From Gemmatales bacterium (GTDB lineage: Bacteria; Planctomycetota; Planctomycetia; Gemmatales; HRBIN36), in NCBI GenBank assembly GCA_041640595.1, contig JBEPZY010000001.1:256001-320000 (forward strand): a DNA stretch of 64,000 nucleotides, in the 5' to 3' direction. Positions 8,013-60,648 of this stretch are shown in pieces (position 1 is the first letter of the stretch; each line of letters starts with the position of its first letter). The position numbers and the translations under genes were made by a program. The notes beneath the pieces were generated by a model that made no database searches, had not been told where the DNA came from, and saw only the letters and a list, made by a program, of their open reading frames with translations.

Positions 8013-8015
8013 TGC

Positions 8016-41274: not shown

Positions 41275-44200
41275 ATGATCCAGGTAGGCGACTGGGTGCG
41301 GATTGACCCGTATCCAGAAAAGGCGGAAGTCTTTGAAGTTCGGCAACAAGGTGGGCACGTGGTGCTGGGCATAATCTTCCTGGTCTCGCAAAAGGCGCAG
41401 CGAATGGTGTTCACGCCCGAGGAACTGGCGCAGAGAGTTCAGCGTCTGCCCAAACTCGGGGAGCGTTTCGAGCAAGACAGCTTGCGAACGCGTGAACCGT
41501 TCGTGCTTTTCCTGGAGGCGCTGCGCATGCGTCTGGCGTACACGTTTGATCCGCATTATGCGGTGAGCGTGACGCAGGTGGACCTGCTGCCCCATCAGGT
41601 GGACGCCGTCTATGGCCACATTCTGCCGCTGCCCCGCATTCGCTTCTTGTTGGCGGACGACCCGGGACTGGGCAAGACGATCATGGCGGGATTGGTGCTG
41701 AAGGAACTGAAGGTGCGCGGCGCAGTTCGTCGGACTCTGCTGGTGGTCCCTGCTCACTTGCAGGATCAATGGCAGCGGGAAATGCGCGACTGGTTCCGCG
41801 AGGACTTTGTCCCGCTGCGTCGGGAGCTATTGCAGAACCTGTACGCGACGGACTTTTTCGAGCGGCACGCTCAGGTGCTGGTGTCGTTGGATTTTGCCCG
41901 GCAGGTGGATGTCCGCGAGCTATTGGCGCGTCAGTCCTGGGACTTGCTGATTGTGGATGAAGCGCACAAACTGTCGGCGACCCGCTACGGGCAGAGAATT
42001 TTCAAGACGCAACGTTACCAGCTGGGCGAAGCCCTGGCCCCTCGGGCCACGCATCTGCTGTTGCTGACGGCCACGCCGCACAAGGGGGATGACGATGCGT
42101 ATTTCCTGCTGCTCAACCTGCTGGAGCCCCGTTTATTTGCAACGGCCGAGCATTTGAAGCAGGCAGCGCGCAGTGAGGGGCTTCCATTTGTACTGCGGCG
42201 TAGTAAGGAGCAGGTTACCGATCTGGAGGGACGCAAGCTGTTCCGCCGCCGCGAGGTGCAGAGCCTGGGTATCACCCAGAGCGAAGGGGAGAAGCAACTT
42301 TACGAAGCGGTCACCCAGTATGTCCGCCGCTGGTACGCTGCCGTTTCCGGCAAGACCGACCGGAAAAGTCGTAACGTGGCCCTGGCTCTGACGGTGCTGC
42401 AACGCCGACTTTCTTCCAGTCTGTTTGCTGTGCGGGAGTCGCTGCGTCGTCGCGGGGCCAAACTGCAGAATCTCCTGCAGGAATGGGAGCGTCGGCTCCA
42501 GGAGAACGAGTTGCCGGAATGGGACGAGGAGACCGAGCAGGACCTGGCCGAGATGACCTCCCAGGAGTGGGAAGGGTTTCAAGAGCGGCTGGAAGGAATC
42601 ACCGCTGCCCGGAACCCCGAGGAGTTGCGGGAGGAACTGGGCGAACTCAAGGAACTGCTTCGCCTGGCGCTGGAAGTGGAGAAAGCAGGTGAGGAAGCCA
42701 AAGTGCAGGAATTACGCCGCGTCATCGAGGAACGGTTGCGGCATCATCCCGACGAGAAGTTGCTGATTTTCACCGAATTCAAGGATACGCTGTCAGCGCT
42801 GGAGCAGAAAATCCGGAGCTGGGGCTTTCCTTGCGTGAGCATCCACGGGCAGATGTCGCTGGGGGACCGCATCGAAGCGGAGCGGCGTTTCCGGGACGAA
42901 GTGCAGGTGATGGTCGCCACCGATGCCGCCGGCGAGGGCATCAACCTGCAGTTCTGCCGACTCATGGTCAACTACGATCTCCCCTGGAACCCCAATCGGC
43001 TGGAACAGCGTATGGGACGCATTCATCGTTACGGACAGCAGCGGGATTGTTATGTCTTCAATCTGCTGTATCCCGAAACCCGCGAAGGCGAGGTGCTGCA
43101 GCGGCTCATGGAGAAACTGGAACGGATGCGAGAACGCCTGGGTGACAGCGTGTACGACGTGATCGGCACCTTGCTCGAAGGGGTGCGGCTGGAAGAACTC
43201 CTGATGCAGGCCATTGTCCAGGGCCCATCCGGCGAACTGGAGCGTGTCCTTGATGTGGACCTGGGGCAACGACTCGAGCAATACTGGCAAACGCTCCGGG
43301 AAAACGCCCTGGCTGGCCATTACATTGACCTTACCACCGTTCAGAAAAACGAGACGGACTCGCTCTTGCGTCGGCTGGTGCCCTGGGATGTCCAGCGCTT
43401 TACCCAACTGGCAGTGCCGACCGTGGGCGGGCAGATCAGCGAGGACCGTCGCCAACGCCAGGTCTTTCGCCTCAGCGTGCCCAGAGAGTTCCTCAAGCAA
43501 CACGGCCTGCAGAACGAGTCGTTCGCCCGTGGTCTGCGGATTGCCTTTCAGCGGGACGTGGCACGACGGGCCGATGCTGAGTTCTTCGCTCCAGGTCATC
43601 CCTTGCTCGAAGCCCTCACCGATCACTTCCTGAATAAGAACCGCCCTGTCCAGGCCATCCTGGTGGATGAGCAAGGGCGTAAGGGTACACTGTGGCTGTA
43701 TCGGGTTCGGCTGCAGGACGGTCGGAGCCAGGCGGTTCTGGAACGGTTACTGGCGTTGTTTCACGATCTGACCAGCGGCGAGATACGCGAAGTGGACCCC
43801 CGCATGGTCTGGGAGCTGGCCAGTCCGCCGGATCACCTCGACCTGCCCCCGAACCTGCCCAATCTCCTGGACGAAGCCAGTCAGCGAACTCGAGAGCACG
43901 TGCTCATTTGCCTGCAGGCGCTGCAACACGAAGCGCAACAGCGGCGGGAGCGGGAATGCACCATCAAGCACGACTGGCTGAACCGCTCCTACACGTATCT
44001 CATCGCCGAGTCCCAGGGCAAACTTATCGAGTACCACCAGCGCCAGCAAGCCGGCGAAGACATGGCCGTCGCTATCCGTCAGGAAGAGGAAAATCTCAAA
44101 GTCCTCCTACGCGAGAAGGACGAGCGTTTGAAAGAAATCGAAAAGGAGCGGCAAATCACGTTGCTGGAACCGGAGCTGGAAGCGGTCGCCCTCATCCTGC

Positions 44201-44616
44201 CCAAAGCCGCAGCCACTTCAGCTACGCCGGCCGAAGACGAAGAAATCAAGCGTCGGGTCGAAGAAGCCGGCATGCGGTACGTGATGGAACACGAACGCCA
44301 AGAGGGCCGTCAGCCCCAGGATGTCAGCCGTGAATTCCGCGGCTACGATATTGAGTCCCGGTCGGATTCGGAGGTCCGCTATATCGAGGTGAAATCGCTT
44401 GCGACAACCGGCCCCTGGGAGTTCACGGTCCACGAGTGGCAAGTCGCTGAGCGCCTGGGCGCCCGCTACTGGCTTTATGTGGTGGAGCATGCCCTCACCA
44501 AGCCCCGGTTGCGCCCCTACGATAATCCCGCCGCCCGCTTCAAGCCCAAGCTTGTCATGGGGGTAGTGAAGATGGTGGTGGAAGAATCGGAACAGGGGGG
44601 CGAAAATGACGCCTGA
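41275..44616 (+). CDS. SNF2-family helicase with C-terminal DUF3883 nuclease domain (system 1)
   Basis: LADDPGLGKT, VDEAHK, LTATPH, EGINLQ, EQRMGRIHRYGQ; GYDIES..YIEVKS. Confidence 0.92.
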   Translation: MIQVGDWVRIDPYPEKAEVFEVRQQGGHVVLGIIFLVSQKAQRMVFTPEELAQRVQRLPKLGERFEQDSLRTREPFVLFLEALRMRLAYTFDPHYAVSVTQVDLLPHQVDAVYGHILPLPRIRFLLADDPGLGKTIMAGLVLKELKVRGAVRRTLLVVPAHLQDQWQREMRDWFREDFVPLRRELLQNLYATDFFERHAQVLVSLDFARQVDVRELLARQSWDLLIVDEAHKLSATRYGQRIFKTQRYQLGEALAPRATHLLLLTATPHKGDDDAYFLLLNLLEPRLFATAEHLKQAARSEGLPFVLRRSKEQVTDLEGRKLFRRREVQSLGITQSEGEKQLYEAVTQYVRRWYAAVSGKTDRKSRNVALALTVLQRRLSSSLFAVRESLRRRGAKLQNLLQEWERRLQENELPEWDEETEQDLAEMTSQEWEGFQERLEGITAARNPEELREELGELKELLRLALEVEKAGEEAKVQELRRVIEERLRHHPDEKLLIFTEFKDTLSALEQKIRSWGFPCVSIHGQMSLGDRIEAERRFRDEVQVMVATDAAGEGINLQFCRLMVNYDLPWNPNRLEQRMGRIHRYGQQRDCYVFNLLYPETREGEVLQRLMEKLERMRERLGDSVYDVIGTLLEGVRLEELLMQAIVQGPSGELERVLDVDLGQRLEQYWQTLRENALAGHYIDLTTVQKNETDSLLRRLVPWDVQRFTQLAVPTVGGQISEDRRQRQVFRLSVPREFLKQHGLQNESFARGLRIAFQRDVARRADAEFFAPGHPLLEALTDHFLNKNRPVQAILVDEQGRKGTLWLYRVRLQDGRSQAVLERLLALFHDLTSGEIREVDPRMVWELASPPDHLDLPPNLPNLLDEASQRTREHVLICLQALQHEAQQRRERECTIKHDWLNRSYTYLIAESQGKLIEYHQRQQAGEDMAVAIRQEEENLKVLLREKDERLKEIEKERQITLLEPELEAVALILPKAAATSATPAEDEEIKRRVEEAGMRYVMEHERQEGRQPQDVSREFRGYDIESRSDSEVRYIEVKSLATTGPWEFTVHEWQVAERLGARYWLYVVEHALTKPRLRPYDNPAARFKPKLVMGVVKMVVEESEQGGENDA

Positions 44617-47600
44617 AGATCGCGTGCGTTTTCTCATTGAAAGGGCGATGCCGCTGCGGGAGTTGTCGGCGGAGGCGCGGCGGGAGAAGGCGATTCGCCA
44701 CGGGCACATCTCCACGCTGCATGTCTGGTGGGCAAGGCGGCCGCTGGTGGTCGCCCGCGCTGCTGTGCTTGGCGCCCTGCTGACCGACGAAGCTGACATC
44801 GCCCCCGATTTCGTCCAGAATCTCTGCCGCTGGGAAGTGCATGATGGCGATGCCGGCGGGCGTTCTCTGCTGAATGAGGCACGGGCGCTTGTGCGCCAGC
44901 GTTTCGGCTCGACGCCCCCGAAAGTGCTGGACTCGTTTGCTGGCGGCGGATCGATCCCGCTGGAGGCTCTGCGGTTAGGTGCCCAGGCCTTCGCCGTCGA
45001 ATACAACCCCGTCGCCTACCTCATCTTGAAGGCGACCATTGAGTTCCCACAACGGTTCAGGCAAGGGATTAGGGATGAGGGGCGAGGGACGAAGGAGGAG
45101 ATGCATCATGAGCATTCGGTCATATCAGGACCTGGCAATTTGGAAAAAGGCGATGCAATTGGTTGTTCAAGTGTATCACCTGACCAGGCGCTTCCCTCGG
45201 GAGGAAATGCACGGTCTGACCAGCCAAATGCGCCGAGCAGCAGTTTCCATACCCACAAACATTGCGGAAGGATGGGGGCGAGGGAGCAGGAAGGAATACA
45301 TCCAATTTCTGCGGATTGCCAGAGGTTCACTTCTGGAACTGGAGACCCTTCTGGCTATCTCCAGAAACCTTCGTTACCTGAGCCAAGAGGATATGCAGGC
45401 AAGACTGGCTCTGGTGGAGGAAATCAGCCGCATGCTCAGTGGGTTGATTGCGAGCCTGAAGAGAGGCATGAGGGCTTAGGGGCAGGGGTCAAATCTTCTC
45501 CCTCATCCCTCACCCCTCACCCCTCGTCCCTCACCCCTGCCCCCTCCCCCCTCATCCCTCACCCCTCATCCCTCACCGACGCTGTTCTTTTTTGGGGCAA
45601 CTGGGTGCTTGAGCAAGCACGAAGGGAATTATCGCCCTTCTATCCCTCTGTCGCCCCTCATCCCTCGCCCCTCACCCCTCATCCCTCGCCCGAAACGCCC
45701 ATCGCCTACATCTGGAGCCGCACCATTCGATGTCCGAACCCCGATTGTGGCTCGGAAATTCCGCTGTTCCGGCAGTTCTGGCTTGCTAGGAAAGGGACGA
45801 GGGATAAGGGACGAGGGACGAGGGATAAGGGACGAGGGGCGAGGAAGGAGATTGCGTTAGCCCCTGTCGTTGATAGAGAGCGAAGGTGCGTCAATTTCAG
45901 AATCGTGCAGCGTCAAGGGGATTCTTGGCAGGTCATCGATGATTCCTCGGAGAGGGATAAGGGACGAGGGATTGGGGGCGAGGAACGAGGGACGAGGAAT
46001 GAGGGACGAGGAATGAGAGACGAGGCGCCTCTTTTATCCCCCAACCCTCACCCCTCACCCCTCAGCCCTCATCCCTCACCCCTCACCCCTCACCCCTCCA
46101 CCCTCATCCCTAACTCCTTTGACCCATCAAAGGGCACCGTCAGCCGCGGGCATGCCGTCTGCCTGGTCTGCAACACCAGCGTTCGGGACTCCTACGTGAA
46201 GGCGGAAGCCCAGGCCGAGCGCATGGGGCATCGCCTCGTCGCCGTCGTGACCACCCGCGGTCGTGGGCATGGCCGCAACTACCGCCTGGCCACCGAAGAA
46301 GACCTCGCCGCCTTCCGCAAGGCCGAGCAAGCCCTGCAAAACCTCCTGCAAACCCCATCCCCTTGGGCTTTCGGGCTCAGTTGGGTGCCCGAGGAGCCAT
46401 CGCCCGGAACTATCGGACAAGGACCTTCGCAGCGGCCGAGTTATGGGATGACTACCTGGGGTAAGTTCTTCAATCCCCGCCAGTTGCTGGCGCTGTGCAC
46501 CTTCGGCAAGTGGGTGCGGGAAGCCTATCGGCAAATCCTGCGGCAAACCGACGACCCCGACTTCGCCAAAGCCGTCGCAACGTATCTGGCGTTTGCGTTG
46601 GATAAACTTGCGAATTGGCTGTCTTGCGTATCCCGGTGGGAAGTAACCTGGGAGATGCCTAAAGAGGCGCTAACTGGTCACAGGCTCGCAATGGTGTTCG
46701 ATTATGCAGAGGGCAACCCGACAACCGGAGATGTTGCTTCCTGGCCAAAAGCGCTGGGGTACCTAGATAGAGGTCTCCGAGCTCTTTCTTGGATGAAAAA
46801 TGTTGGAGCCGTAGTAAAGGGCTCGGCGGCCAGTTTGCCCTTCCCCGACAAGCATTTTGATGCCGTCATCATAGACCCGCCGTATGCCGACAATGTGCCG
46901 TATGCCGACCTTTCGGATTTCTTCTATGTCTGGCTGCGTCGGACAGTGGGCGACCTTTACCCGGAAGCGTTCGGCACCGAACTGGTGCCCAAAGAGGAAG
47001 AGGCGGTGGTCAACCCGGCGCGGTTTGGCGGGGGCAAGAAAGGGGAGGCGGTCGCCCGCCGCCATTACCAGCGGCTGATGCAGAAATCGTTTGCGGAAAT
47101 CTACCGCGTGCTCCAACCCGATGGCATGGCGGTGGTGATGTTCACCCACCGTTCGACCGAGGCCTGGGAACGCCTGATGCTGAGCCTCCTGGAGGCGGGG
47201 TTGTACCCGACCGCTTCCTGGCCGGTGCACACGGAGATGGAGGCCTCGACGCATCAGCGCGGCAAAGGAGCGATCCAGAGCACGATCCTGATGGCGTGTC
47301 GCCGCCGTCCGGAGAATGCCGGGGTCGGCTGGTACTCTCAGGTACGGGACGACCTCGAGCGGGTAATCCGGGAGCGGCTGGAAGCGTTCTGGCGAGCGGG
47401 CATCCGCGGGGCGGATTTCTTCGTTTCGGCCATCGGGCCGGCCGTCGGGGTCTTCGGCAAGTATCGCAAGGTCATGCACCCGGACGGCCGGGAAGTCACC
47501 GTCAGCGATCTGCTGGACGAAGCCCGGTCGCTGGTAACCCGGTTTGCCCTGGAACAATTACGCCTGTCCACGCTGGATGCTCCGACGCGCTTTTATGTGC

Positions 47601-48130
47601 TTTACCGGTGGGCCTACGGCGGGGCCGAGCTTTCCTTTGATGAAGCCAACAAACTCGCCAAGAGCGTCGGCGCGGAACTCGATGCCCTGGCCGGCGAGCA
47701 TCACCTGGTGGAACGCCGACAGGACAAGGTGCAGACGCCCGCCTTCGCCCGGCGGTTCCAGAACCTCGACTTTTGCAAACGCCTGCAGCAGGCGCTGGAT
47801 GATGGCCAGTTGCCACAGTTGCCCGAGATCGATCAGGTGCACCTGTTGCTGTACCTGTGGCGCAAAGGCGAGCGGGAAAATATCTCCGCCGTGCTCGGAC
47901 GTGCCGGCGTGATGAGCGAAGACCATCCGCTGTGGCGAACCGCCCAGGCACTTCTGGAAGTGCAGCAGAACGACCAGAAAGCCGACGAAATCGGCGAAGA
48001 GGTTACCGTCCTGGCGCAATTGCTGGGGAGCAAACGCGGTCTGTTACGCGAGGTCGAGCAGACCCACACCACCGCCTTGCAGCTGCAATTTTTCGACGAC
48101 ACCGTAACCCCCCGCCGCCGCAGACGCTGA
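44606..48130 (+). CDS. DUF1156 adenine-specific DNA methyltransferase (system 1) with four in-frame insertions
   Basis: LHVWWARRPL, DSFAGGGSIPLEA (motif I), CPNPDC/CLVC, IDPPYADNVPY (motif IV); 1174 codons without a stop. Confidence 0.9.
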   Translation: MTPEDRVRFLIERAMPLRELSAEARREKAIRHGHISTLHVWWARRPLVVARAAVLGALLTDEADIAPDFVQNLCRWEVHDGDAGGRSLLNEARALVRQRFGSTPPKVLDSFAGGGSIPLEALRLGAQAFAVEYNPVAYLILKATIEFPQRFRQGIRDEGRGTKEEMHHEHSVISGPGNLEKGDAIGCSSVSPDQALPSGGNARSDQPNAPSSSFHTHKHCGRMGAREQEGIHPISADCQRFTSGTGDPSGYLQKPSLPEPRGYAGKTGSGGGNQPHAQWVDCEPEERHEGLGAGVKSSPSSLTPHPSSLTPAPSPLIPHPSSLTDAVLFWGNWVLEQARRELSPFYPSVAPHPSPLTPHPSPETPIAYIWSRTIRCPNPDCGSEIPLFRQFWLARKGTRDKGRGTRDKGRGARKEIALAPVVDRERRCVNFRIVQRQGDSWQVIDDSSERDKGRGIGGEERGTRNEGRGMRDEAPLLSPNPHPSPLSPHPSPLTPHPSTLIPNSFDPSKGTVSRGHAVCLVCNTSVRDSYVKAEAQAERMGHRLVAVVTTRGRGHGRNYRLATEEDLAAFRKAEQALQNLLQTPSPWAFGLSWVPEEPSPGTIGQGPSQRPSYGMTTWGKFFNPRQLLALCTFGKWVREAYRQILRQTDDPDFAKAVATYLAFALDKLANWLSCVSRWEVTWEMPKEALTGHRLAMVFDYAEGNPTTGDVASWPKALGYLDRGLRALSWMKNVGAVVKGSAASLPFPDKHFDAVIIDPPYADNVPYADLSDFFYVWLRRTVGDLYPEAFGTELVPKEEEAVVNPARFGGGKKGEAVARRHYQRLMQKSFAEIYRVLQPDGMAVVMFTHRSTEAWERLMLSLLEAGLYPTASWPVHTEMEASTHQRGKGAIQSTILMACRRRPENAGVGWYSQVRDDLERVIRERLEAFWRAGIRGADFFVSAIGPAVGVFGKYRKVMHPDGREVTVSDLLDEARSLVTRFALEQLRLSTLDAPTRFYVLYRWAYGGAELSFDEANKLAKSVGAELDALAGEHHLVERRQDKVQTPAFARRFQNLDFCKRLQQALDDGQLPQLPEIDQVHLLLYLWRKGERENISAVLGRAGVMSEDHPLWRTAQALLEVQQNDQKADEIGEEVTVLAQLLGSKRGLLREVEQTHTTALQLQFFDDTVTPRRRRR
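45064..46110. repeat. Interspersed heptamer repeat tracts (GGGRYGA and its complement TCRYCCC) within the methyltransferase gene
   Basis: Purine tracts ~45064-45092, 45465-45488, 45793-45844, 45952-46024; pyrimidine tracts ~45500-45577, 45651-45691, 46036-46110. Confidence 0.9.
45108..45479 (+). CDS. Four-helix-bundle protein (23S rRNA IVP / Avd-like), nested in the +1 frame of the methyltransferase
   Basis: AGGAGG RBS at 45093-45098; SYQDLAIWKKAM..FPREEMHGLTSQMRRAAVSIPTNIAEG..FLRIARGSLLELET. Confidence 0.9.
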   Translation: MSIRSYQDLAIWKKAMQLVVQVYHLTRRFPREEMHGLTSQMRRAAVSIPTNIAEGWGRGSRKEYIQFLRIARGSLLELETLLAISRNLRYLSQEDMQARLALVEEISRMLSGLIASLKRGMRA

Positions 48131-48137
48131 ACCCTGT

Positions 48138-48380
48138 CCACCGCGACACCCCAACACGAGCAATCACCGCGAAAAACCTTAGTGCTCCCTGGTGCCTGAG
48201 CGGTTATAATACCGCAACAGGAAGGTACGGAACGCACGAAGGAACACCAACGAAATATGCGGTATCCCTTTGTGTCTTCGTGCCCTGCTGGTTAAAACTC
48301 AATTACGAAGACACCAGGACGCGAAGAAACCTCGAGAAAACCCTTCGTGTTGCGTGGTGTCTTTGTGTCCTGGCGGTTAC
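48138..48380. repeat. Three degenerate hairpin-forming units between methyltransferase and ATPase
   Basis: acgaagacaccaggacgcgaag ... cttcgtg..gtgtctttgtgtcctggcggtt; each unit ends in (c/t)ggtta. Confidence 0.55.
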
Positions 48381-48406
48381 AACCCTTCAGCGACGGGGGA
48401 AGAAGC

Positions 48407-51031
48407 ATGGCGAGGCAGTCAGCTCTGCGGGTCTGGGAGGTGTGCGAACCGCATCGGGATGTGTTTTCGCGTGATCCGGACCCATCGCTGTTCGCTATCA
48501 GTCTGCACCACGTGATGCGAGGCTCGGCGGATCGGGATTACACTGACCCGGAGCGCTTCTTCGCCCGGACCTGCATGACGCGAGCCCTGTCGAACTTGTT
48601 GCAGCGAGTGCTCGGTCGGCTGGCGGGTCAGGGTCGCGGGGCACCGGTGTTGCGGCTGGAAACGCCATTCGGCGGCGGCAAAACCCACACCATGACAGCC
48701 CTCTGGCATATCGCCCGGTACCCGGAAGTCTGCAGCGAGCAGGAATCGCTCCGACCCATCCTGGAGGCGTTGAACCTGCGCAGCGTTCCGAACGATCTCC
48801 GCGTGGCCGTGCTCGATGGCCGGGGACTTGACGCCCGCGAACGACGTACCGACGACGGATTGACCGTCCGCACCCTGTGGGGCGAGCTGGCGTATCAGCT
48901 CGGCGGTCGGACGGGTTATGAGATGCTGGCCGATGCCGACCAGACGCGGACCTCCCCCGGCGGGGCCTTGCTCACCGAGTTGCTCCGCCGCTATCAACCC
49001 GCGCTCATCCTTATGGACGAAGTGCTCGACTACCTCATCAAGGCCCGGGCGGTGTCGGTGGGATCGAGCAATCTGATGGAACAGACCGGCACCTTCCTGG
49101 GAGAACTGACCTCAGCCGTCAGCGCGGTCCCCCAGAGTGCGCTGGTGCTAGCGTTGCCCGCCTCCTCGCTGGAAATCCCCGCCGAGAACCAGGAATCCGC
49201 CGAACGGCTCTTCCAGTACGCCAAGAAAGTGCTGGGACGAATGGAACTGGTGGAGACGCCCGTCGCTCAGGATGAAGTGTTCGAGGTGCTGCGCCGTCGC
49301 CTGTTTCAACGGGTCGCCGAAGAACGCGACCGCAAAAAAGCTGTCGAGGCTTTCCGCGCTTACTACGAAGAGTATGCCCGCTTTTTCCCCGATCGGTTGC
49401 GGTCGCCGGATTATCGCGAGCGCATGCTCCAGGCCTATCCCTTCCATCCCGAACTGGTGGATTTGCTCTATGAGCGGTGGGGTCCGCATCCGCAGTTTCA
49501 GCGTACCCGCGGAGCGTTGCGGCTGCTGGCGCTGGTGCTGCGGCGGATCTGGCAGCAACGACCGGGTTCGGCGCTGTTGATTCAGCCCCACCATATTGAT
49601 CTCCATGACCGCCATATTCGCGGCGAAGTGGTGCGGCTGCTGGACAGCAGTTGGGAAGCTATTGTCACGGGCGATGTCCTCCGACGGGCGGAAGAACTGG
49701 AACGGCAATTGGGCGGCGAGTACAGTCGCGAACAACTGGCCCGAGGAACTGCCAGTGCCGCTTTTGTGTACAGCATCTCCGCCGCCACCCGCGATGTCGG
49801 CGCCACCGAAGAGGAAATCCGCACCGCTTTGCTCCGCCCGTCGATCAACCCGGCGATGGTCTCCGAGGTGCTCGGACGCTTACGCGAACGACTCTGGTAT
49901 CTTCGTTACCGCGACCACCGCTATTTCTTCACAGCCAAACCGAACCTGAACAAGGTCATCCTGGACTTTGAGAACGAAGTTACCGACGAGCAGGTCGAGA
50001 AAGCCCTGCGGGAGCGTATCACCCAGTGCACTGGCAAGGCTGGCGAGGGGTTTCAACTGGTGATCGCTCCGGCAGAGCCCAAACTCGTTCCCGACCGGGC
50101 TCAACCGACTCTGGTTGTCCTCCCGCCGGATGTCCACCAGCCGCAGCAGTGGATGGAACAAGCGGTTCAGGCCGCCGAAAGCGGTATCCGCGTCAACAAA
50201 AACATGCTCATCTTCCTCGTGCCGGAACCGACGCAAATCTCCGCTTTGCGATCCGCCATTCGTCGCTGGCTCGCCCTCAAAGCCGTCTCCGACTCCCATT
50301 CCTTCAAAGAAATGGACAGCGATGACCGGGAACAGGTGAAGTTGCAACTCAAGGACAAGGAAGCGGAACTGGAGGCCCTCCTCCGCCGAACCTACCAGGA
50401 GATTTACCGTCCCAGCAACGGCAGTGTCAAGCGCATCACCGGCATCGGCCCCGAAACCATCAAGGCCAAAACACTCGCTGCGTTCGTCGAGGAAACGCTG
50501 AGAAATAAAGGCGAGCTGGTGGATAGCGTCGCCCCGGAGTATCTCAAAGATGTGCTGCGGATCGACCAGCAACAGCAGGTACCGCTGGCACAGGTGAGCA
50601 ACCTCTTCACCGGCGTAACCAGCCAACCGGTGCTCAGGAATCCCGAGGAGGCGGTTCGCCGGACCGTTCAGCAGGGCGTGCAGCAGGGGCTGTTCGCTGT
50701 GCGTGTCGGCGAGCAGGTTTACTCGCGTCAGGAAGTGCCCGATGACATCCTGAAACGCAAGGACGTGGTGCTCGTCCCGCCACCTGATGATAAGAAGCAA
50801 CCACCTCCGCCGCCGGCCCAGCCTAAGCCCCTCACCCTGCGGGTGCGAACCAGCGCCAGCGTGTTCTATCCGATTACGGTTGTGGCTAAGCAGTTGCAGC
50901 AGTTGAATGACGCGACGATTGTGCTCGAAGTCCGCGACCCGTCGGGCAAACTGTCCACCATGCAGGCGGAGATCGACAAACTCGTGCGCGACTACGGTTG
51001 CACCTGTGAGTGGGTCTCATCTACTGAGTGA
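48407..51031 (+). CDS. DUF499 AAA+ ATPase (system 1)
   Basis: WEVCEPHRDV, LETPFGGGKTH, TLWGELAYQLG, ILMDE, AYPFHPEL, FQRTRGALRLL. Confidence 0.92.
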   Translation: MARQSALRVWEVCEPHRDVFSRDPDPSLFAISLHHVMRGSADRDYTDPERFFARTCMTRALSNLLQRVLGRLAGQGRGAPVLRLETPFGGGKTHTMTALWHIARYPEVCSEQESLRPILEALNLRSVPNDLRVAVLDGRGLDARERRTDDGLTVRTLWGELAYQLGGRTGYEMLADADQTRTSPGGALLTELLRRYQPALILMDEVLDYLIKARAVSVGSSNLMEQTGTFLGELTSAVSAVPQSALVLALPASSLEIPAENQESAERLFQYAKKVLGRMELVETPVAQDEVFEVLRRRLFQRVAEERDRKKAVEAFRAYYEEYARFFPDRLRSPDYRERMLQAYPFHPELVDLLYERWGPHPQFQRTRGALRLLALVLRRIWQQRPGSALLIQPHHIDLHDRHIRGEVVRLLDSSWEAIVTGDVLRRAEELERQLGGEYSREQLARGTASAAFVYSISAATRDVGATEEEIRTALLRPSINPAMVSEVLGRLRERLWYLRYRDHRYFFTAKPNLNKVILDFENEVTDEQVEKALRERITQCTGKAGEGFQLVIAPAEPKLVPDRAQPTLVVLPPDVHQPQQWMEQAVQAAESGIRVNKNMLIFLVPEPTQISALRSAIRRWLALKAVSDSHSFKEMDSDDREQVKLQLKDKEAELEALLRRTYQEIYRPSNGSVKRITGIGPETIKAKTLAAFVEETLRNKGELVDSVAPEYLKDVLRIDQQQQVPLAQVSNLFTGVTSQPVLRNPEEAVRRTVQQGVQQGLFAVRVGEQVYSRQEVPDDILKRKDVVLVPPPDDKKQPPPPPAQPKPLTLRVRTSASVFYPITVVAKQLQQLNDATIVLEVRDPSGKLSTMQAEIDKLVRDYGCTCEWVSSTE

Positions 51032-51555: not shown

Positions 51556-52041
51556 GATAAGTCAGAACTGGAGCCTTCAGGTAATCGCGGACGGGGTAGG
51601 GAACGCCGATAATGCGGATTTAGAGTCTGGGATAAGTCAGAACTGGGCCATCAGGCAATCGCGGACGCGGTGGGGAACGCCGATAGTGCGGATTTAGAGT
51701 CTGAGATAAGTCAGAACAGGGGCCTTCAGGTAATCGCGGGCGGGGTAGGGAACGCCGGTAGTGCGGATTTAGAGTCTGAGATAAGTCAGAACTGGGGCCT
51801 TCAGGTAATCGCGGACGCGGTGGGGAACGCCGATAGTGCGGATTTAGAGTCTGGGATAAGTCAGAACTGGGGCCATCAGGCAATCGCGGACGGGGTAGGG
51901 AACGCCGATAGTGCGGATTTGGAGTCTGAGATAAGTCAGAACTGGGGCCTTCAGGTAATCGCGGACGGGGTAGGGAACGCCGATAGTGCGGATTTAGAGT
52001 CTGAGAGAAGTCAGAACTGGGGCCTTCAGGTAATCGCGGAC
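51556..52041. repeat. 75-bp tandem repeat, about 6.5 near-identical copies
   Basis: Units start at 51556, 51631, 51705, 51780, 51855, 51930 and 52005 (partial). Confidence 0.95.
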
Positions 52042-52772: not shown

Positions 52773-53735
52773 CCAGCCGAGTTTCTTCGGGGCTTACAAA
52801 AAGGCTCGCCGAACGCCAAGCATACGGTCGGCTGCAATCGGCTTGACCGAACATTGCAACGATGTGAGCGCCCTACCCGAGGTCGGAAAATGGAACTTTT
52901 CGTTAGCCATTTTGTGGTCAGGTGTTGCGAATTAGCTTGCCCCCGCCACAACTGGCGATAGGTCAGTGCTTGCCCACCTACTGGGAGAAACTGCTGCGGC
53001 GATTGCGACTCCGCAAGGTCCCCGCATCCGTCCACATCCTCCGCAGTTCGACAGAGCTGGCAATACACGGCGTTGATCGGCGAGTGAAAAGTTCTGCCTT
53101 ATCCTGCCGCTTCGGACAACGGGCAACCGAAACATCGCCCGCTTCGTTGTCGGTTGCCACACCGCACCTGCGAGACCGGCAGCAGCGGCATGCTCCATCG
53201 AGCCATCGTCCGCTCCGGTGGGAACTGCTAGTCTATGCATGGATTAGCCGTTTGTGCAGGCTAGAGCGGCAAAACGGCGGTGGCGAAACCACGAAGGAAC
53301 GCAAGGCGGGGAAGCAGCAGCGCGAAGAATTTCCAGCACAGCCAGGCTCAGCGGACAAGGACCGTGCAAGCCGAGAACAAGTTCCTTACGCAGATCGAGA
53401 TCGAGGATGAATACTGCGACTCAGCGGCCAAACAACGCGCATGCTGGGAGAGCGTCCATCCAGGAAAGAGCACAGCGTCAGGTGCGGCGCCATAATTTCG
53501 ACGGTGCCCGATTCTCCTCGCTCTCATTGTGCGATACGCCAGTGTGAAGTGCGGCGTTATGAATACAACACACACTTAGGCCGTGCATTGGCCATGACCG
53601 GCGAAGTATAATTGACCCGCTTCGATCCGCTCCGTGGCATCAAGTACGCCGGCAAATTCCAAACGTGAACGTGCCGGCACGATTGACAGGGGAAGGACAT
53701 CACTCGTGGGAAGCACGTCTGGGGGGAGCTGCGAT

Positions 53736-56700
53736 ATGCAAGGGGAGCGTAGCGGTGAGAAGACTCTGAAACCCGACGATGTTCTTCAGGGGGATTTCTG
53801 GCCTGAGCCTGTACGCATTGTGAGGCTGGTCCGGTTCGGCGAACGCACTAAGATTGAAGCCGTCGGTACTAAGACCAGGCAATTTTACGAACACATTCTC
53901 AGAGCGCAAGACCTGGGACAGGTGCGAGTGGTTACCGAAACGGGACGGGATTACGGCGGACGTGGCGAAGCTTTTTTCCTGGTCATGGAAGCACACCGCA
54001 TCCGCTCGGCTTATCAATTTGATCCGCTCTTTGCCGTCACCGTTTCCCAGGTGGATCCCCTGCCGCACCAGATCGAGGCAGTCTATCACTACATCCTGCG
54101 TAATCCGCGCATTCGCTTCCTGTTAGCCGATGATCCTGGGGCAGGCAAAACCATAATGACGGGTTTGCTGCTCAAGGAACTGAAATACCGCGGACTGGTA
54201 CAGTGGACGCTCATCGTGGTGCCGGGTCATTTGCGAGACCAGTGGCTGAGGGAAATGAAAGAACGTTTTGGTGAAACCTTTACCGCAGTTGACCGCAACA
54301 TCATCAATGCCACCTGGGGGCGCAACGTCTGGCAAGAGCAGCCCCAGATTATCACCTCCATGGACTTTGCCAAACAGAGCGATGTGATGGCGACTCTGAG
54401 CGAGGTACACTGGGATTTGGTGATCGTGGATGAAGCCCATAAGATGGCTGCCTACCGTTATGGCGAAAAAACCGCACGCACTGAACGCTACCGTTTGGGC
54501 GAACTCCTATCGCGGAAAAGCAACTTTTTGCTGTTTCTAACTGCTACCCCTCATCGCGGTGATCCCGAGAACTTCCTGCTGTTCCTTGACCTGCTTCAGC
54601 CCGGTTTCTTCGCGAACGCCGACCTGCTTCAGGAATCCGTGCGCAACAAGGATAATCCCCTCTACCTTCGCCGGTTGAAGGAGGACCTTAAAGATTTTCA
54701 GGGGCGACCGCTCTTTCCGCCCCGTCGTGTAACCACGAAACCGTACCGGCTGAACGACGAGGAAAAGCGGCTTTACAACGCTGTGACCGAATACGTGGAA
54801 AAGTCGTACAACAAGGCCCTGGCAGCGGAAAAGCGAAATGTGGCGTTCGCTCTGTTGATTCTGCAGCGGCGGTTGGCATCCAGCGTCCGGGCAGTGCGTC
54901 GCTCACTGGAACGCCGTAAACAGCGACTGCAAGAGTTGCTCCAGTTGGGCAAATGGCTCGCCGAACGCGACAGCATTGACGAGGAAGAGCTCGAAGACGC
55001 ACCCGAAGCCGAACGCCTTAAGCAGGAGGAAGAGTTGCTGGAGCGGCTCACCGCGGCCGAAACCCGTGAGGAATTGCAGGAGGAGATCGCCAACCTGGAT
55101 CAGTTAATTCGCCTTGCCCGTGACGCCGAACGCCACGGTATCGAAACCAAGCTCAACGAGCTACGCAAGGTAATGGAAGACGAACATATCCAGCTCAGCG
55201 GCGAAAAACTCCTTGTTTTTACCGAATCACGCGAGACGCTGGAATATCTGGCGGAGAAACTCAAGGAGTGGGGCTATACCGTAAGCACTCTGCACGGTGG
55301 TATGGACCTGAATCAGCGCATTCGTACCGAGCATGAGTTCCGCGAACGAGCGCAGGTGATGGTATGCACTGAAGCGGGCGGGGAAGGCATCAACCTGCAG
55401 TTTTGCTCGCTGATGGTCAATTACGACATCCCTTGGAACCCCAACCGTCTGGAACAGCGTATGGGGCGGATTCATCGCTACGGCCAGCAAAAAGAGGTGC
55501 ACATCTATAACCTGGTCGCCGCCGATACCCGTGAAGGCAAGGTACTGGAGGCGCTGTTTCGCAAGCTGGAACGGATTCAGGAAGCGCTGGGCAGCGACCG
55601 CGTTTTCGACGTCATCGGCGAAGTGATGCCGGGACGCAGCCTGCAAGAACTGATCGTCGAAGCGATCGCCAACCGGCGCACCCTGGAGGAAATCGTGGCC
55701 GCTATCGAAGCGGTGCCCGATGAAGAAGCGGTGCGTAAGGCACGCGAAGCCGTACTGGAAGGTTTGGCCACCCGGCACATTGACCTGCAAAGCGTGCTGG
55801 GCGAAGAGCGACGCGCCCGCGAGAACCGTCTGGTGCCGGAATACATTGAGCGCTTTTTCGAACGTGCCTGTCAGTTTTTGAAAATCCCTCTGGAACGCCG
55901 CCGTGATGGACTCTGGCGCGTCCCCAGCGTGCCCTACGAAATTCGCCATGTTTCACAGGAATTTCGGCACCGCTTCGGTGAGGTTTTCCGGGAATACAGC
56001 AAAGTGGCGTTTGACAAAAAGATGGCTCGTGAGCAGAACGCGGTCCTGGTAGCGCCAGCCCATCCATTGCTGGAGGCGATCATCGAACGCCTGCTCACCG
56101 ATTGCGCCGACGATGTTCGCCGCGGAGCCGTATTTACCGACCCCGACGGTCGGCTTAACGGTTGGCTCTTCTTTCTGGAAGGGGAAATCCGCGACGGCAC
56201 CAACCAGGTGGCCGGCAAGCATGTTTTTGCTCTCTACCGCTCCGTTGCCGGCGATCTGCGGCTCGTCAACCCATCCATTCTCTGGGACCTGAAACCGGAT
56301 GGCGAACGGCAGGAGATGCACCCCCAGCTAGGCGAGGAAGAAGTTATCGCCTACGCCATTGAACACGTTCTGGAGCCGTATCGTGCGGAATTGCTGAAAA
56401 GGCGTGAGTGGGATGCCGCTATCAAGCGTAAATACGGCGTGCGTTCGCTGGAGCAAATGATTCTGGACTCGGAGGCGAAACTGATTGACTACGAAACTCG
56501 CCGGGCCAAAGGCGAAAACTTTCCCGACGTGGAAATACTCAATGAGCAGCGGAAGAAGGAAGAGCTTCAGGCACGCAAACAGGCGCTGGAAGAACAGATC
56601 CGCCGTCAGACCAGTCTGCTGCCGGCCAGCCCGAAGGTGCTGGGTGTGGTGCGCGTCCTGCCGCAAGTCGCTACCGATGACGACATGCGATCCGATGCCG

Positions 56701-57065
56701 AGATCGAAGCCATCGGCATGCAGGTGGCCATGCAGCGCGAGCGGGAACGCGGACGCTTGCCCGAGGATGTTTCGGCACAAAACCTGGGCTACGACATTCG
56801 CTCGACCAGCCCCGCGGGCGAAGTGCGCTACATTGAAGTCAAAGCCCGCGCCACCACCGGCCCCATAGCGCTCACCCCGAACGAGTGGCTCATGGCGCAA
56901 CGCCTCGGCAATGACTACTGGCTTTATATCGTCGCGCATGCTGCCAGCGAGCCACACCTGCATACTATTCAAAACCCCGCCGCTAAATTGCGCCCCGAAG
57001 AACAGGTCGAAACCGTGCGCTATGTCATAAAAAACTGGCAGGAGGTAAGCGATGAAGCCACGTGA
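53736..57065 (+). CDS. SNF2-family helicase with C-terminal DUF3883 nuclease domain (system 2)
   Basis: LADDPGAGKT, VDEAHK, LTATPHRG, EQRMGRIHRYGQ; GYDIRS..YIEVKAR..LTPNEW. Confidence 0.92.
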   Translation: MQGERSGEKTLKPDDVLQGDFWPEPVRIVRLVRFGERTKIEAVGTKTRQFYEHILRAQDLGQVRVVTETGRDYGGRGEAFFLVMEAHRIRSAYQFDPLFAVTVSQVDPLPHQIEAVYHYILRNPRIRFLLADDPGAGKTIMTGLLLKELKYRGLVQWTLIVVPGHLRDQWLREMKERFGETFTAVDRNIINATWGRNVWQEQPQIITSMDFAKQSDVMATLSEVHWDLVIVDEAHKMAAYRYGEKTARTERYRLGELLSRKSNFLLFLTATPHRGDPENFLLFLDLLQPGFFANADLLQESVRNKDNPLYLRRLKEDLKDFQGRPLFPPRRVTTKPYRLNDEEKRLYNAVTEYVEKSYNKALAAEKRNVAFALLILQRRLASSVRAVRRSLERRKQRLQELLQLGKWLAERDSIDEEELEDAPEAERLKQEEELLERLTAAETREELQEEIANLDQLIRLARDAERHGIETKLNELRKVMEDEHIQLSGEKLLVFTESRETLEYLAEKLKEWGYTVSTLHGGMDLNQRIRTEHEFRERAQVMVCTEAGGEGINLQFCSLMVNYDIPWNPNRLEQRMGRIHRYGQQKEVHIYNLVAADTREGKVLEALFRKLERIQEALGSDRVFDVIGEVMPGRSLQELIVEAIANRRTLEEIVAAIEAVPDEEAVRKAREAVLEGLATRHIDLQSVLGEERRARENRLVPEYIERFFERACQFLKIPLERRRDGLWRVPSVPYEIRHVSQEFRHRFGEVFREYSKVAFDKKMAREQNAVLVAPAHPLLEAIIERLLTDCADDVRRGAVFTDPDGRLNGWLFFLEGEIRDGTNQVAGKHVFALYRSVAGDLRLVNPSILWDLKPDGERQEMHPQLGEEEVIAYAIEHVLEPYRAELLKRREWDAAIKRKYGVRSLEQMILDSEAKLIDYETRRAKGENFPDVEILNEQRKKEELQARKQALEEQIRRQTSLLPASPKVLGVVRVLPQVATDDDMRSDAEIEAIGMQVAMQRERERGRLPEDVSAQNLGYDIRSTSPAGEVRYIEVKARATTGPIALTPNEWLMAQRLGNDYWLYIVAHAASEPHLHTIQNPAAKLRPEEQVETVRYVIKNWQEVSDEAT

Positions 57066-57423
57066 GATTCCCCAATCGGTGCGGCTGGCCTTGGAGGAAC
57101 TCAAAGCGTCGCTCGTCGAACTCTATGGCGAGCGGCTGGAGGGGGTCTATCTCTACGGCTCGTACGCGCGAGGCGATTTCACCGAAGATTCGGACATAGA
57201 TGTGCTTATCGTTCTCCAGGGCGATGTCAAGCCAGGAGCCGAGATTACCAGGCTCAGCCCGCTTCTGTCGGAAATATGTTTGCGCCATGATGTGCTCATA
57301 AGCACATATCCTGTGCCAGCAACATGCCTAAGGGAGCGGCAAAGTCCTTTGTTCATCAACATACGTCGTGAGGGCGTGCCGATGGGCGAGTTTCTCGAAA
57401 GAACCAACCATGCGGGAGCGTGA
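57052..57423 (+). CDS. Minimal nucleotidyltransferase (MNT)
   Basis: LYGSYARGDFTEDSDIDVLIV. Confidence 0.9.
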   Translation: MKPREIPQSVRLALEELKASLVELYGERLEGVYLYGSYARGDFTEDSDIDVLIVLQGDVKPGAEITRLSPLLSEICLRHDVLISTYPVPATCLRERQSPLFINIRREGVPMGEFLERTNHAGA

Positions 57424-57835
57424 GGTGGTGCGCATAGTTGCTGAGCGGCTGAAAAGCGAAGGTGCCCGGCACCTTCAGGTGCGTTACGCTCGTGAACCTG
57501 GCCCGGATATCGAGGCCGTGTTGCCTAACTCCCATCGTCAGTTGTTTATCGAAGCCAAGGGGGACGTAAAATCGGCCGAATCGGCGCTCGGTGTTGCCCT
57601 CTACCAGATCCTTTGCCGCTATGATGGCCAGGCCGTTTGCGCAATTGCCGTGCCCTTCTCCAGTCGTTATCAAGACCTTCTGAGAAAAGTCCTGGCTGGC
57701 CTTGGGCAGTTGCGCGTGCATGTGCTCCTGGTCAGGGAGGCCGAAGTCTGGCATCTTCCGCCCAACGCAAAAGGATTTCTGCCGACCAAACCTTCTTCGC
57801 TCGTCGAGGCTCTGGAAAATGAGCAAAGACATTAA
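57410..57835 (+). CDS. Small PD-(D/E)xK restriction-endonuclease-fold protein
   Basis: 141 aa: EREVV..GPDIEA..FIEAKG..ALYQIL; overlaps both neighbours. Confidence 0.65.
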
Positions 57836-59393
57836 GCTGCGGCTCATTGAAGTAGATTTCCCGTTGAGGAAGGTTTCCGAAGAATCGGTGCGGGAAAAGA
57901 ACATTCGCCACGGGCACATTTCCACGCTGCACATCTGGTGGGCCCGCCGACCGCTGGCCGCTTCCCGTGCTACCGCACTGGCGGCACTTCTGCCCGATGA
58001 CCACAACCGCCGCGACGAGCTGCTCCGGCTCATCGAGGAGCTTGCTCCCTGGGAAGCCGTTTCCGGTAAAGCTTCGAGGAGCCAATCCCTTCAGAAAGCC
58101 CGCGAGCTTCTCCGCGAAGCCTTTGGCGGACGTGCTCCGCGGGTGCTCGATTGCTTCGCCGGTGGCGGGGCCATTCCCCTCGAAGCGCTGCGCCTGGGCT
58201 GCGAAACCTATGCCCTCGACTACAACCCCGTCGCCGTCCTTATCAACAAAGCTGTCCTCGAATTCCCGCAGAAGTTCGGACGACCTGACCAGGTCACAAC
58301 CGTACCGCTCCCGCCTGCTTCGCAAAACCAGTCGCGGACCGATGGGCGACTTCTCGACGTGGAAGTCGAGCCTGTCGAAAATCCCCTGCTTCAAGCGGTC
58401 TCCGCCTGGGGAGCGTGGGTGTTAGAGGAAGCACGCAGGGAATTAGAGCCATTCTACCCGAAGGACCACGATGGTTCGATTCCGGTCGGCTACATCTGGG
58501 CGAGGACCTTGCCGTGTCAGAATCCCGCCTGCGGCGCCGAAATCCCGCTCATGCGCCAGACCTGGCTGGCCAAAAAAGATAAGAGGAAGGTTGCACTCAA
58601 GCTCATCCCGAACCGGGGAGCACGGCGCGTGGAGGTCGAAATCGTCGGGGCGGACGGCCGTCCGATTGATTTTGACCCCGAAGAGGGCACCGTCTCGCGC
58701 GCTCACGTGCGCTGCCCGCTCTGCGGCGGCACGTTTGACGACAAGACGACCCGCCGCCTCTTCCGCGAGGGCAAATCCGGCCAGCGTCTGATGGCGGTCG
58801 TGCTCCACCATCCGAAGCGCACAGGCAAGACCTACCGCCTGCCCAGCAAACGCGATCTGGAAGCCTACCACGCCGCCGAAACCGCACTGGAACACAAACG
58901 GGCCCGCCTCCGCGAAGAATGGGGCATCGAACCCGTGCCGGATGAGCCGTTGCCGCCGCTGGAGACGCTCGGCTTCCGTGTCCAGCGCTATGGTCTCACC
59001 CGCTGGGGCGACCTGTTCAACCCGCGGCAGAAGCTGGCGCTGATCACCTTCGCCGAGAAAGTCCGCCAGGCCCACGCCCAAATTCTCTCCCAAGGCGCCG
59101 AGCCGGAGTTCGCCAAAGCGGTGGCAACGTATCTGGCGTTGGTTGTCGATGAATTAGCTCGCTTTACCTCGGTCCTCAACCCTTGGAAAGTCGATGCCGA
59201 AGCTATTGTTCATGTTTTTGGCAGGCAAGCACTACCTATGCTCTGGGATCACTGCGAAAACGTTCCCGTCGGCTCGCACGGTGGAACATGGGAGCACCGC
59301 CTTACGGAAATAATTGCAGTGGCTGAAGCGCTATACGTACATGAAAGGTCCAACCTCAGTGGCATCGCTGCGGGAGAGCGAACGACTCAGTGA
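57819..59393 (+). CDS. DUF1156 methyltransferase (system 2), N-terminal half with SAM-binding motif, Zn ribbon and target-recognition region
   Basis: [39 protein letters not shown]; stops before motif IV. Confidence 0.9.
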
Positions 59394-59491
59394 AGGTACG
59401 CAAAGCCAGATTCACCAGCTGGAAATGGTCGCCAGCGAAGTGCGACGGCGATACCGAGCAGAGACTCGATTGGAACAATAAAGGAGAGAGA

Positions 59492-59788
59492 ATGAAAACA
59501 CGGAACGAAATTCTGGCGATCTTGAACGAACACCGGCAGGTTCTGCAGGAGCGCTACGGGGTCGAGGAACTGGCCCTTTTTGGTTCCTATGCCCGAGGGG
59601 AGCAGTGTCCCGTGAGCGATGTGGACATCTTGGTGCGGGTCCGTCGGCCCATCGGACTCAAGTTCTTTGAACTCTGGGATTACCTGGAGGAAATTCTGGA
59701 CTTGAAAGTGGACCTCCTGACGCCGGAGGCCCTTCAACAGAAGCCCGCCCTGTGGGAGAACGTTCAGGAAGACCTCGTCTATGTCTAA
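59492..59788 (+). CDS. MNT antitoxin
   Basis: ATG 59492 after AAGGAG; LFGSYARGEQ..SDVDILV..KVDL. Confidence 0.9.
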   Translation: MKTRNEILAILNEHRQVLQERYGVEELALFGSYARGEQCPVSDVDILVRVRRPIGLKFFELWDYLEEILDLKVDLLTPEALQQKPALWENVQEDLVYV

Positions 59789-60128
59789 GCGTGATTGGAC
59801 TCTCTTTTTGCAGGATATGCTGGACATCATCGGTAAGATCGGGCAGTACACGAGCGGGATGAGTTTTCAGGAATTTCTCCAAGACAGCCGAACCCAAGAT
59901 GCAGTAGTCAGGAACCTCGAAGTCCTGGGAGAAGCAGCGAGGCGGATTCCCCCCCACATCCAAGAGCGCTACCAGGAGATTCCGTGGGCCCAAATTGTGG
60001 GGCTGAGGAACCGGCTCATCCACGGTTACTTCCTCGTGGACTATGGCATTGTCTGGGAGATCGTCCAGAACGAACTGTCACCGTTGCGTGAAAAATTGGA
60101 ACAGATCGCGCGAGAGGTATCCGGATGA
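59781..60128 (+). CDS. DUF86 HEPN toxin
   Basis: DAVVRNLEVLGEAA, IPWAQIVGLRNRLIHGY (RX4H). Confidence 0.92.
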   Translation: MSKRDWTLFLQDMLDIIGKIGQYTSGMSFQEFLQDSRTQDAVVRNLEVLGEAARRIPPHIQERYQEIPWAQIVGLRNRLIHGYFLVDYGIVWEIVQNELSPLREKLEQIAREVSG

Positions 60129-60418
60129 CAAGCCTTGAGGAGATCAAAACGATACTTCAGCAACACAAAGAAGAGCTGAGAGCAAAGTATAAGGTCAAGG
60201 AGATAGGCGTTTTTGGCTCATACGTCCGGGGTCAACAGAGAAAGCAAAGCGACATAGATATCCTGGTGGAGTTTGAAGTGGTTCCTGGGCTGCTGAAATT
60301 TATAGAACTTGAAGATTACCTGTCCGAACTGCTTGGAGTCAAAGTTGACCTTGTCCGAAAGAGTTCTATCAGGGAGGAACTGCGGGACACAATCCTTCAA
60401 GAGGTGGTGGTGCTTTGA
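60125..60418 (+). CDS. MNT antitoxin (second pair)
   Basis: VFGSYVRGQQRKQSDIDILVEF..LGVKVDLV. Confidence 0.92.
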   Translation: MTSLEEIKTILQQHKEELRAKYKVKEIGVFGSYVRGQQRKQSDIDILVEFEVVPGLLKFIELEDYLSELLGVKVDLVRKSSIREELRDTILQEVVVL

Positions 60419-60648
60419 AGCGGCAATATCTTCTGTTTATCCAAGACATCCTGGAGGCGATACAGAAAGGGGAGGAATTCGCTGGCGCCATCATCCCCTG
60501 GAGCAGCATGGCAAAAATGAGGGATAGATTGGCTCATGGTTATTGGGCTGTGGATGATGAGATAGTGCGGAAAATTCGCAAAGAAGAGTTGCCGGAACTC
60601 AAGGCGAAAATCATGGAGGTCTATGAAAATGAACAGAAGCGTTCCTGA
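60415..60648 (+). pseudogene. Internally deleted DUF86 HEPN gene
   Basis: 77 aa; keeps FIQDIL and IPW..MRDRLAHGY but lacks ~35-40 central residues present in 59781-60128. Confidence 0.7.

Follow-up and report, generated by a model that had tools for sequence, protein, structure and literature searches.

A four-helix-bundle gene nested out of frame in a bacterial hmaB methyltransferase gene, between complementary heptamer arms

Anatomy of the insert in hmaB

The DNA considered here, hereafter the window, is a stretch of 64,000 nucleotides from a Gemmatales bacterium (contig JBEPZY010000001.1, positions 256,001 to 320,000). The best PADLOC hits along it are, in order, the hmaA helicase, the hmaB methylase and the hmaC ATPase, which places the locus among the Hma systems. 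The hmaB frame (44606-48130) runs through 1174 codons without a stop, and both the FAGGG motif near residue 109 and the DPPY motif at residue 757 are intact; judging by its sequence, HmaB is probably active. The features of the operon and of the insert are the following.

41275..44616, + strand: hmaA, SNF2 helicase with a C-terminal NOV_C domain (PADLOC HmaA, E=1.7e-179; Pfam)
44606..48130, + strand: hmaB, the host gene, DUF1156 adenine methyltransferase of 1174 aa (PADLOC HmaB, E=6.1e-115)
44990..46145, + strand: approximate recombination tract, near-identical to the nested allele L056 (allele comparison)
45065..45571, + strand: whole insert, read in the hmaB frame as 169 codons rich in G, S and P that stand in place of about one codon, with predicted disorder
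45065..45092, + strand: 5′ arm, four purine-rich heptamers GGGATTA-GGGATGA-GGGGCGA-GGGACGA (sequence, repeat search)
45093..45098, + strand: AGGAGG ribosome-binding site, 9 nt before the ATG; the predicted fold pairs part of it with the 3′ arm
45108..45479, + strand: gene for a 123-aa four-helix-bundle protein (PF05635/TIGR02436), shifted by one base from the hmaB frame
45500..45577, + strand: 3′ arm, about 11 pyrimidine-rich complementary heptamers (11.1 copies, period 7)
45651..45691, + strand: satellite pyrimidine-rich heptamer array, in frame; carries a 1-nt deletion in L053-L055
45793..45844, + strand: satellite purine-rich array, 42 nt of which are missing from the related alleles L054, L056, L057 and L059
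45952..46111, + strand: gene-less hairpin, purine-rich then pyrimidine-rich arrays, in frame (fold -85 kcal/mol)
48347..51031, + strand: hmaC, DUF499 AAA+ ATPase, likely start at 48407 (PADLOC HmaC, E=7.9e-147)

The first-pass annotation had described a 123-codon gene with its own AGGAGG, lying out of frame inside an unbroken methyltransferase frame, and both coordinates and frames are confirmed: the nested frame opens at ATG 45108 and closes at TAG 45477-45479, while the third same-strand frame over it holds seven stops. The complementary heptamer arms, with four 5′ and about 11 3′ units, were recovered by repeat search, and the suggested ability of the RNA ends to pair around the gene agrees with the predicted fold of the 581-nt region, in which the arms are paired (z = -3.63; none of 100 shuffles did as well). 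The arms may, on this prediction, also pair in vivo. Since an independent contig (L052) repeats the locus at 99.8% identity over 5.5 kb, the cassette locus is not an assembly artefact.

Compared with empty orthologous sites, the insert measures about 507 nt, with a net gain of 504 nt or 168 codons. The segment between conserved anchors spans 181 aa in the window versus 13 aa in 12 of the 18 closer orthologous loci; one further locus has 19 aa and five fall outside the anchor pattern, and the small gene is absent from all 18. No target duplication is evident when the insert is compared with the empty hmaB sites. An insert was thus rightly recognised at the outset, but its extent is about 45065-45571 rather than some 515 bp; the second paralogue has about 33 extra residues rather than a loop of about 35, and the site is not a loop in relatives generally, as the 13-aa segment of the 12 orthologues lacks one. 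In a single-sequence structure model the hmaB product reaches a pLDDT of 39; an alignment-based model reaches 58.9 overall and renders the insert as coil at 31-40, a value expected where the alignment is empty.

Three further inserts of the same heptamer family, all of them frame-keeping, lie in hmaB and had been overlooked. One of them, the gene-less hairpin at 45952-46111, is 132 nt longer than its counterparts in L054, L056 and L057 and looks like an "empty cassette". All 24 genome hits to the window heptamer pattern are inside hmaB, and the 99 native arrays of the genome are of another, AGTGGTC type, forming 37 clusters, 34 of them outside long ORFs (e.g., window 8015-8149). A four-helix-bundle gene matching the AGTGGTC-type arrays was not found in this 95% complete genome; relatives possess cassettes with AGTGGTC-type arms.

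The small protein belongs to the IVP family, as originally proposed, with scores far above the curated cut-offs: 139.8 bits against PF05635 (cut-off 33.8; model positions 1-106 of 106) and 135 bits against TIGR02436 (cut-off 24). Its closest solved structure is 2GSC, Xcc0516 (E=2.7e-26). Identity with the Avd protein of diversity-generating retroelements (DGRs) was rejected, the scores being 38.2 against a cut-off of 40 for PF22296 and 39.5 against 80 for NF033474. No reverse transcriptase lies beside the cassette, the only RVT_1 match of the genome being about 56 kb away, and no transposase was found at the window cassette. As a separate observation, an identical four-helix-bundle protein accession adjoins a transposase gene on two plasmids of Nostoc PCC 7120 (L230, L231), where it is perhaps transposase cargo.

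A second Hma system follows in tandem (window 53634-64000). Its hmaB is broken at the variable region into 57822-59393 and 60623-61903 and is split there by two pairs of toxin-antitoxin genes resembling MntA/HepT (59390-60648), none of them reaching its NCBIfam cut-off. A 75-bp tandem repeat of 6.5 copies with 92% matches (window 51556-52041) separates the two systems.

Alleles, selection and probable recombination at the locus

Among eight near-strain contigs the host frame is open in L052, L056, L058 and L059 and broken in L053-L055 and L057. One shared 1-nt deletion in the satellite array at 45651-45691 accounts for L053-L055, L057 has a host-frame TAG within the small gene, and a further protein-survey member (P0001) carries a frameshift just after it; some alleles are therefore dead. 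Defence genes are often broken, and these alleles do not overturn the open-frame pattern. Among the cluster members listed, those that span the site retain an open 167-aa segment in 5/5, and several listed members, from long contigs, stop short at the variable region. Array lengths differ between alleles by 21, 42, 45 or 132 nt, and the 3′ arm changes between strains in multiples of 3. The frame is still open in alleles that have diverged by 10% in the small protein and by 28% in the host-frame peptide.

The two overlapping frames differ clearly in the way they evolve. Between alleles, pN/pS is 0.10-0.31 in the frame of the small gene, with 0.13-0.31 between strains for the window gene, versus 0.8-2.0 in the host frame across the same nucleotides, and 0.04-0.18 in the hmaB flanks of the insert. 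Purifying selection acts on the small protein but not on the host-frame peptide.

The window hmaB looks like a mosaic, with the cassette tract recombined in from an allele that already bore it. Residues ~125-500 are mostly 91-97% identical to L056, falling to 81-83% where arrays or a ~90-nt divergent patch intervene and to 73% at the variable 3′ arm, and the rest of hmaB shows 42-93%, mostly below 80%, and is often nearer the empty allele L133. Informative sites side with L056 in 115 cases and against it in 18 within 44995-46135, compared with 242 and 329 outside, limits which were set after inspection of the data and which enclose the ~90-nt patch that mismatches L056. Because of this mosaic, and because all 24 pattern hits of the genome lie in hmaB, the cassette-bearing tract of about 1.1 kb is best explained as an import by recombination between hmaB alleles.

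Recurrence of the cassette and state of the host frame

The arrangement seen in hmaB is a general one. In a survey of 137 non-redundant four-helix-bundle loci with enough flank, an array of period 7 was present upstream in 116, downstream in 108 and on both sides in 100, versus 4/116 background windows with arrays. The units of the two arms are reverse-complementary in 72 of the 100 two-armed cassettes, whereas 1000 shuffled pairings gave 6.2 on average and never more than 14. Since this holds across 89 distinct upstream heptamer units, the arms must change together. Arm pairing reaches within 14 nt of the start codon at 124/149 loci, a count from a partly deduplicated set without a control and to be taken as a lead only. 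Most cassettes are intergenic, downstream of a co-oriented gene and in unrelated operons; for low-GC intergenic cassettes the upstream gene is in sense orientation in 28 of 31 flanks, antisense in one and unclear in two. No phage record among 50,697 matched the small protein, and 45 plasmid records did, the cassette being intergenic in the 5/5 examined. In one intergenic case (L086), about 45 codons resembling the 3′ end of the upstream gene are repeated downstream of the cassette. Cognate arrays tend to sit in or beside the host gene, as observed for 24/24 pattern hits in the window genome (G000), 43/48 in G014, and 4/4, 3/3 and 5/6 in three other genomes; unlike in these, they are spread genome-wide in G024.

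The survey of other genomes proposed in the first-pass annotation gave a positive answer, as nested PF05635 genes recur inside other coding sequences in both genome and protein searches. A search with the small protein only yielded 100 unrelated loci (29 + 71), in four of which both flanks match one protein in order, the flank test detecting only hosts with a homologue in the reference set. The four hosts are a histidine kinase, two methyltransferases and a leucyl-tRNA synthetase, and the host frame is open in 4/4. The leuS host (L091) scores 1075.9 bits and shows no stop in the host frame versus 15-16 in the other frame; it makes the strongest argument for read-through where the host is essential. 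The same stretch, L091:2397-5372, holds several gene-less heptamer inserts besides the nested cassette.

At the protein level, a profile of the host-frame peptide gave 535 matches among 1.84 billion representative proteins (E<=1e-3), whereas a word-index search with it returned four proteins. Examination of 153 profile-matched proteins revealed 56 internal matches flanked on each side by 80 aa or more, 31 one-sided and 66 short ones, the last being probably spurious calls on intergenic cassettes. The internal hosts comprise 24 Eco57I/type IIG-like enzymes, 12 BREX PglX, 5 type III Mod, 4 DUF1156 proteins, 5 histidine kinases and 6 others; methyltransferases thus make up 45/56, in a set that is protein-level, was gathered with a profile derived partly from methyltransferase-hosted cases and includes 3/56 from the profile's own families. 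Genome searches added further DNA-level nested cases in the same phylum and, from 301 genomes of a different phylum, two more. Nested cassettes were also noticed in an intein, a DnaE2-like polymerase and STAND-like NTPases (P0147, P0100/L186, P0083, P0142). In type III mod genes of one genus, two different cassettes, with different proteins and heptamers, occupy the same loop (L189-L191 vs L215-L216).

On a protein tree of 78 rows, which include 60 intergenic ones drawn at random and some duplicates, the nested label changes nine times. As the starred branches force only one change, the tree is no proof of independent origins; the independence of the nesting events is argued from their differing hosts, sites and heptamers. 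The nested small proteins of L034 and L048 are 73% identical and share a heptamer family, yet occupy different positions in their hosts; this hints at an overlap-competent lineage able to move from one coding site to another.

The first-pass annotation had asked whether host frames are preserved beyond chance in nested copies, and they are. The frame table started from 185 loci, of which 144 remained after removal of duplicates and two more were set aside on account of N or length. Open host frames are present in 14/14 intragenic cassettes versus 12/128 others, and below 56% GC in 9/9 versus 0/86, a contrast that the table overstates, because 8 of the 14 intragenic representatives came from the host-frame profile, which is biased to open frames; the unbiased part consists of the four flank-matched cases and the window family. 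The other same-strand frame is open in 0/128. This bias would arise because synonymous third positions decide whether the host frame contains stops, whereas in the other frame this is decided by Leu, Met, Ile and Val codons. For the window gene, 0.3% of 1500 synonymous-codon shuffles retain an open host frame, or about 1% after correction for background T depletion.

Much of this pattern may be a filter at entry, given that the frame of high-GC cassettes is often open by chance (12/42). A modest sign of upkeep after entry is that synonymous changes involving T are found at 0/30 sites where T would create a host stop versus 18/103 others (P=0.012), a count from which L057, itself a carrier of such a host-frame stop, was left out. 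In L216 and L219 the small gene contains a stop, yet the host frame is open across the cassette. Within reach of the reference set, no host gene split by a closed-frame cassette was found; nor did a split host appear among 20 loci chosen for long frames, the matched stretch of most of them containing stops. Where both flanks did give hits (L160, L207, L223), the three cases turned out to be tandem paralogues.

Interpretation and relation to known elements

The first-pass annotation had proposed a mobile element resembling an intervening sequence (IVS), with three possible fates: tolerated as dual-coding, removed from the RNA or bypassed. A cassette with an IVS-type protein and complementary ends stands; among the fates, dual coding is favoured, and removal and bypass are not. 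We consider it likely that the insert is translated through as a disordered loop, neither excised nor bypassed. According to this read-through model, the mobile cassette would consist of a purine-rich heptamer arm, a ribosome-binding site, the four-helix-bundle gene and a complementary arm, and would usually settle between co-oriented genes. Its survival within a gene would require a stop-free -1 frame, a length divisible by three and a landing site in a surface loop. One mRNA would then give rise to the host enzyme with about 170 unstructured filler residues and, from the internal ribosome-binding site, to the small protein, so that both frames would be translated, as the sequence suggests, and selection on the host frame would act only on stop avoidance. 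Defence methyltransferases would gather most cases probably through their long tolerant loops and the swapping of segments between alleles, and the cassette would have reached the window hmaB when a ~1.1-kb tract was acquired from a cassette-bearing allele through homologous recombination. A precedent for in-frame filler is the Rickettsia palindromic element (RPE) in an active guanylate kinase, as described in the available part of PMC2229807.

The complementarity of the arms, their covariation across 89 unit types and the predicted fold are also what one would expect if the paired arms allowed the insert to be cut out and the mRNA rejoined, or to be hopped over by ribosomes, leaving a normal HmaB. 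23S rRNA IVSs with the same protein family are indeed cut out by RNase III, but, in the accessible account (PMC4990558), without ligation, and such an excision would destroy an mRNA. A unique RNA junction is not defined either, because other arrays in the same mRNA pair equally well or better (-65.8 to -81.6 kcal/mol, against -60.3 for the arms) and base composition alone gives much of the energy, averaging -43 kcal/mol. Removal or bypass would make an open host frame needless, yet it is present in every intragenic case, even where the small gene is dead, and no closed-frame split host came to light. In assembled RNA contigs from four of the eight listed metatranscriptome runs, which drop rare forms and may hold DNA, no excision joint was seen; the small gene is intact in a related allele, and the joints are strain length variants of arrays. 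A 723-nt skip in one RNA contig, whose short side is 21 letters and which lies between repeats, was taken as an artefact. In programmed bypass of the T4 gene 60 type, the take-off site is followed by a stop codon or the coding gap is closed, and hmaB has no stop in its frame. Taken together, we regard removal or bypass as very improbable. A similarly low probability is given to the view that the insert inactivated a gene in a dispensable defence island and that the open frame is a recent accident. The broken alleles, the cluster members that end early and the second Hma system next door fit such a relic, but the frame persists in diverged alleles, the flanks are constrained and the catalytic motifs intact, a nested case occurs in leuS, and at low GC an open frame never arises by chance (0/86).

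Read-through is compatible with a further proposal, which differs from it in the reason for persistence: the small pentamer would bind the heptamer duplexes of its own mRNA, tune or delay expression of the methyltransferase and be kept for the benefit of the host. The preponderance of methyltransferases among internal hosts, purifying selection on the small gene while nested, the clustering of cognate arrays around the host gene and the repeated use of one loop with different heptamers all speak for a built-in regulator. Against it, most cassettes are intergenic and in unrelated operons, 0/18 orthologous hmaB loci possess one, dead copies exist, the arrays of G024 are dispersed, and arrival of the gene from a repeat-rich donor would explain the clustering equally well. 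We therefore think a regulatory role unlikely. As a guess by analogy with its relative Avd, an RNA-binding protein, the small protein may bind RNA duplexes of its own heptamer; Avd has been described as a pentameric RNA-binding barrel (10.1101/2023.10.23.563531, in the accessible text).

The cassette can be compared with the elements it most resembles. With the ORF-bearing 23S rRNA IVS (S23p / 23S_rRNA_IVP) of Leptospira and Coxiella, as presented in the available part of PMC4990558, it shares the protein family, complementary stem-forming borders, here supported by prediction and covariation, and a sporadic distribution. The IVS resides in rRNA, whereas the window cassette lies in a protein-coding mRNA, has heptamer-array arms and a strong ribosome-binding site, carries an ORF under purifying selection and is better explained by read-through than by excision. 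Identity with a 23S rRNA IVS was rejected, since the site is inside hmaB and no Rfam model matches 44000-48500 at gathering score; rRNA was also absent from 20/20 other cassette loci scanned. A self-splicing intron was rejected as well, no group I or II model being among 35 Rfam matches at E<=1. RPE, ERIC and Correia elements, as far as PMC2229807 covers them, share inverted ends and translated, tolerated filler, translation of the filler being here a deduction from sequence; palindromic elements and MITEs with stops are said there to remain intergenic. These elements measure 100-200 bp and have no second-frame gene, unlike the window cassette of ~500 bp with its complete selected gene, and a MITE was rejected in view of the ~507 nt, the full gene and the lack of an evident target duplication. 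The window cassette acts like an RPE-type in-frame insertion carrying an IVS-type gene.

Heptamer repeats are familiar from bacterial genomes, the cyanobacterial STRR being one of them. Others are TAACTGA (PMC4679880) and GGGAATC and GGGGA(C/T)T (PMC4692102), which, in the accessible text of both papers, share with the window arrays the 7-nt units, the frequent convergent inverted pairs and a mostly intergenic location with some copies in ORFs. No link of the repeats to a cargo gene was found in those texts, whereas arrays of the window type flank most four-helix-bundle genes. Members of the family have been placed between cas genes or near DGRs (PMC3936711, PMC10053308, PMC8700078, in the parts available), and a DGR Avd, on the available accounts (10.1101/2023.10.23.563531; PMC10053308), has a related fold; the window protein differs in scoring below the Avd cut-offs and in having no adjacent reverse transcriptase. 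Hma operons are a known site of cargo genes, present in 62.7% of 1,485 systems in the accessible text of 10.1101/2024.01.29.577857; the hmaABC host operon is the common point, but those genes are located between hma genes and the small gene of the window overlaps hmaB itself. The available text of a BREX survey (PMC12839542) makes no mention of the family terms. In the literature searched, whose scope excluded supplements and most subscription papers, no description of a nested cassette was found, and the arrangement is apparently undescribed there.

A bolder proposal, which we put forward tentatively and consider rather doubtful, is that four-helix-bundle genes and covarying inverted heptamer arms together make up a single large family of mobile elements that has gone unrecognised. 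The pentamer would recognise its own heptamer duplex, drive new insertions with a host polymerase or reverse transcriptase and leave gene-less hairpins behind, and lineages with a stop-free -1 frame would be "overlap-competent", colonising coding genes and, above all, defence methyltransferases. If this were true, bacterial heptamer repeats and the ORFs of 23S rRNA IVSs would be explained as one system.

Full same-strand nesting of one complete gene in another is considered rare in bacteria. Here it arose repeatedly from one cassette, in one frame and at many sites, which would offer a mobile gene a route to inhabit essential and defence genes without splicing and would provide natural examples of enzymes with about 170 filler residues. 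Nested cassettes escape annotation, because pipelines call only one of the two ORFs. Finally, the tie between the protein family and the heptamers makes the function of S23p/IVP proteins and the origin of heptamer repeats testable together.
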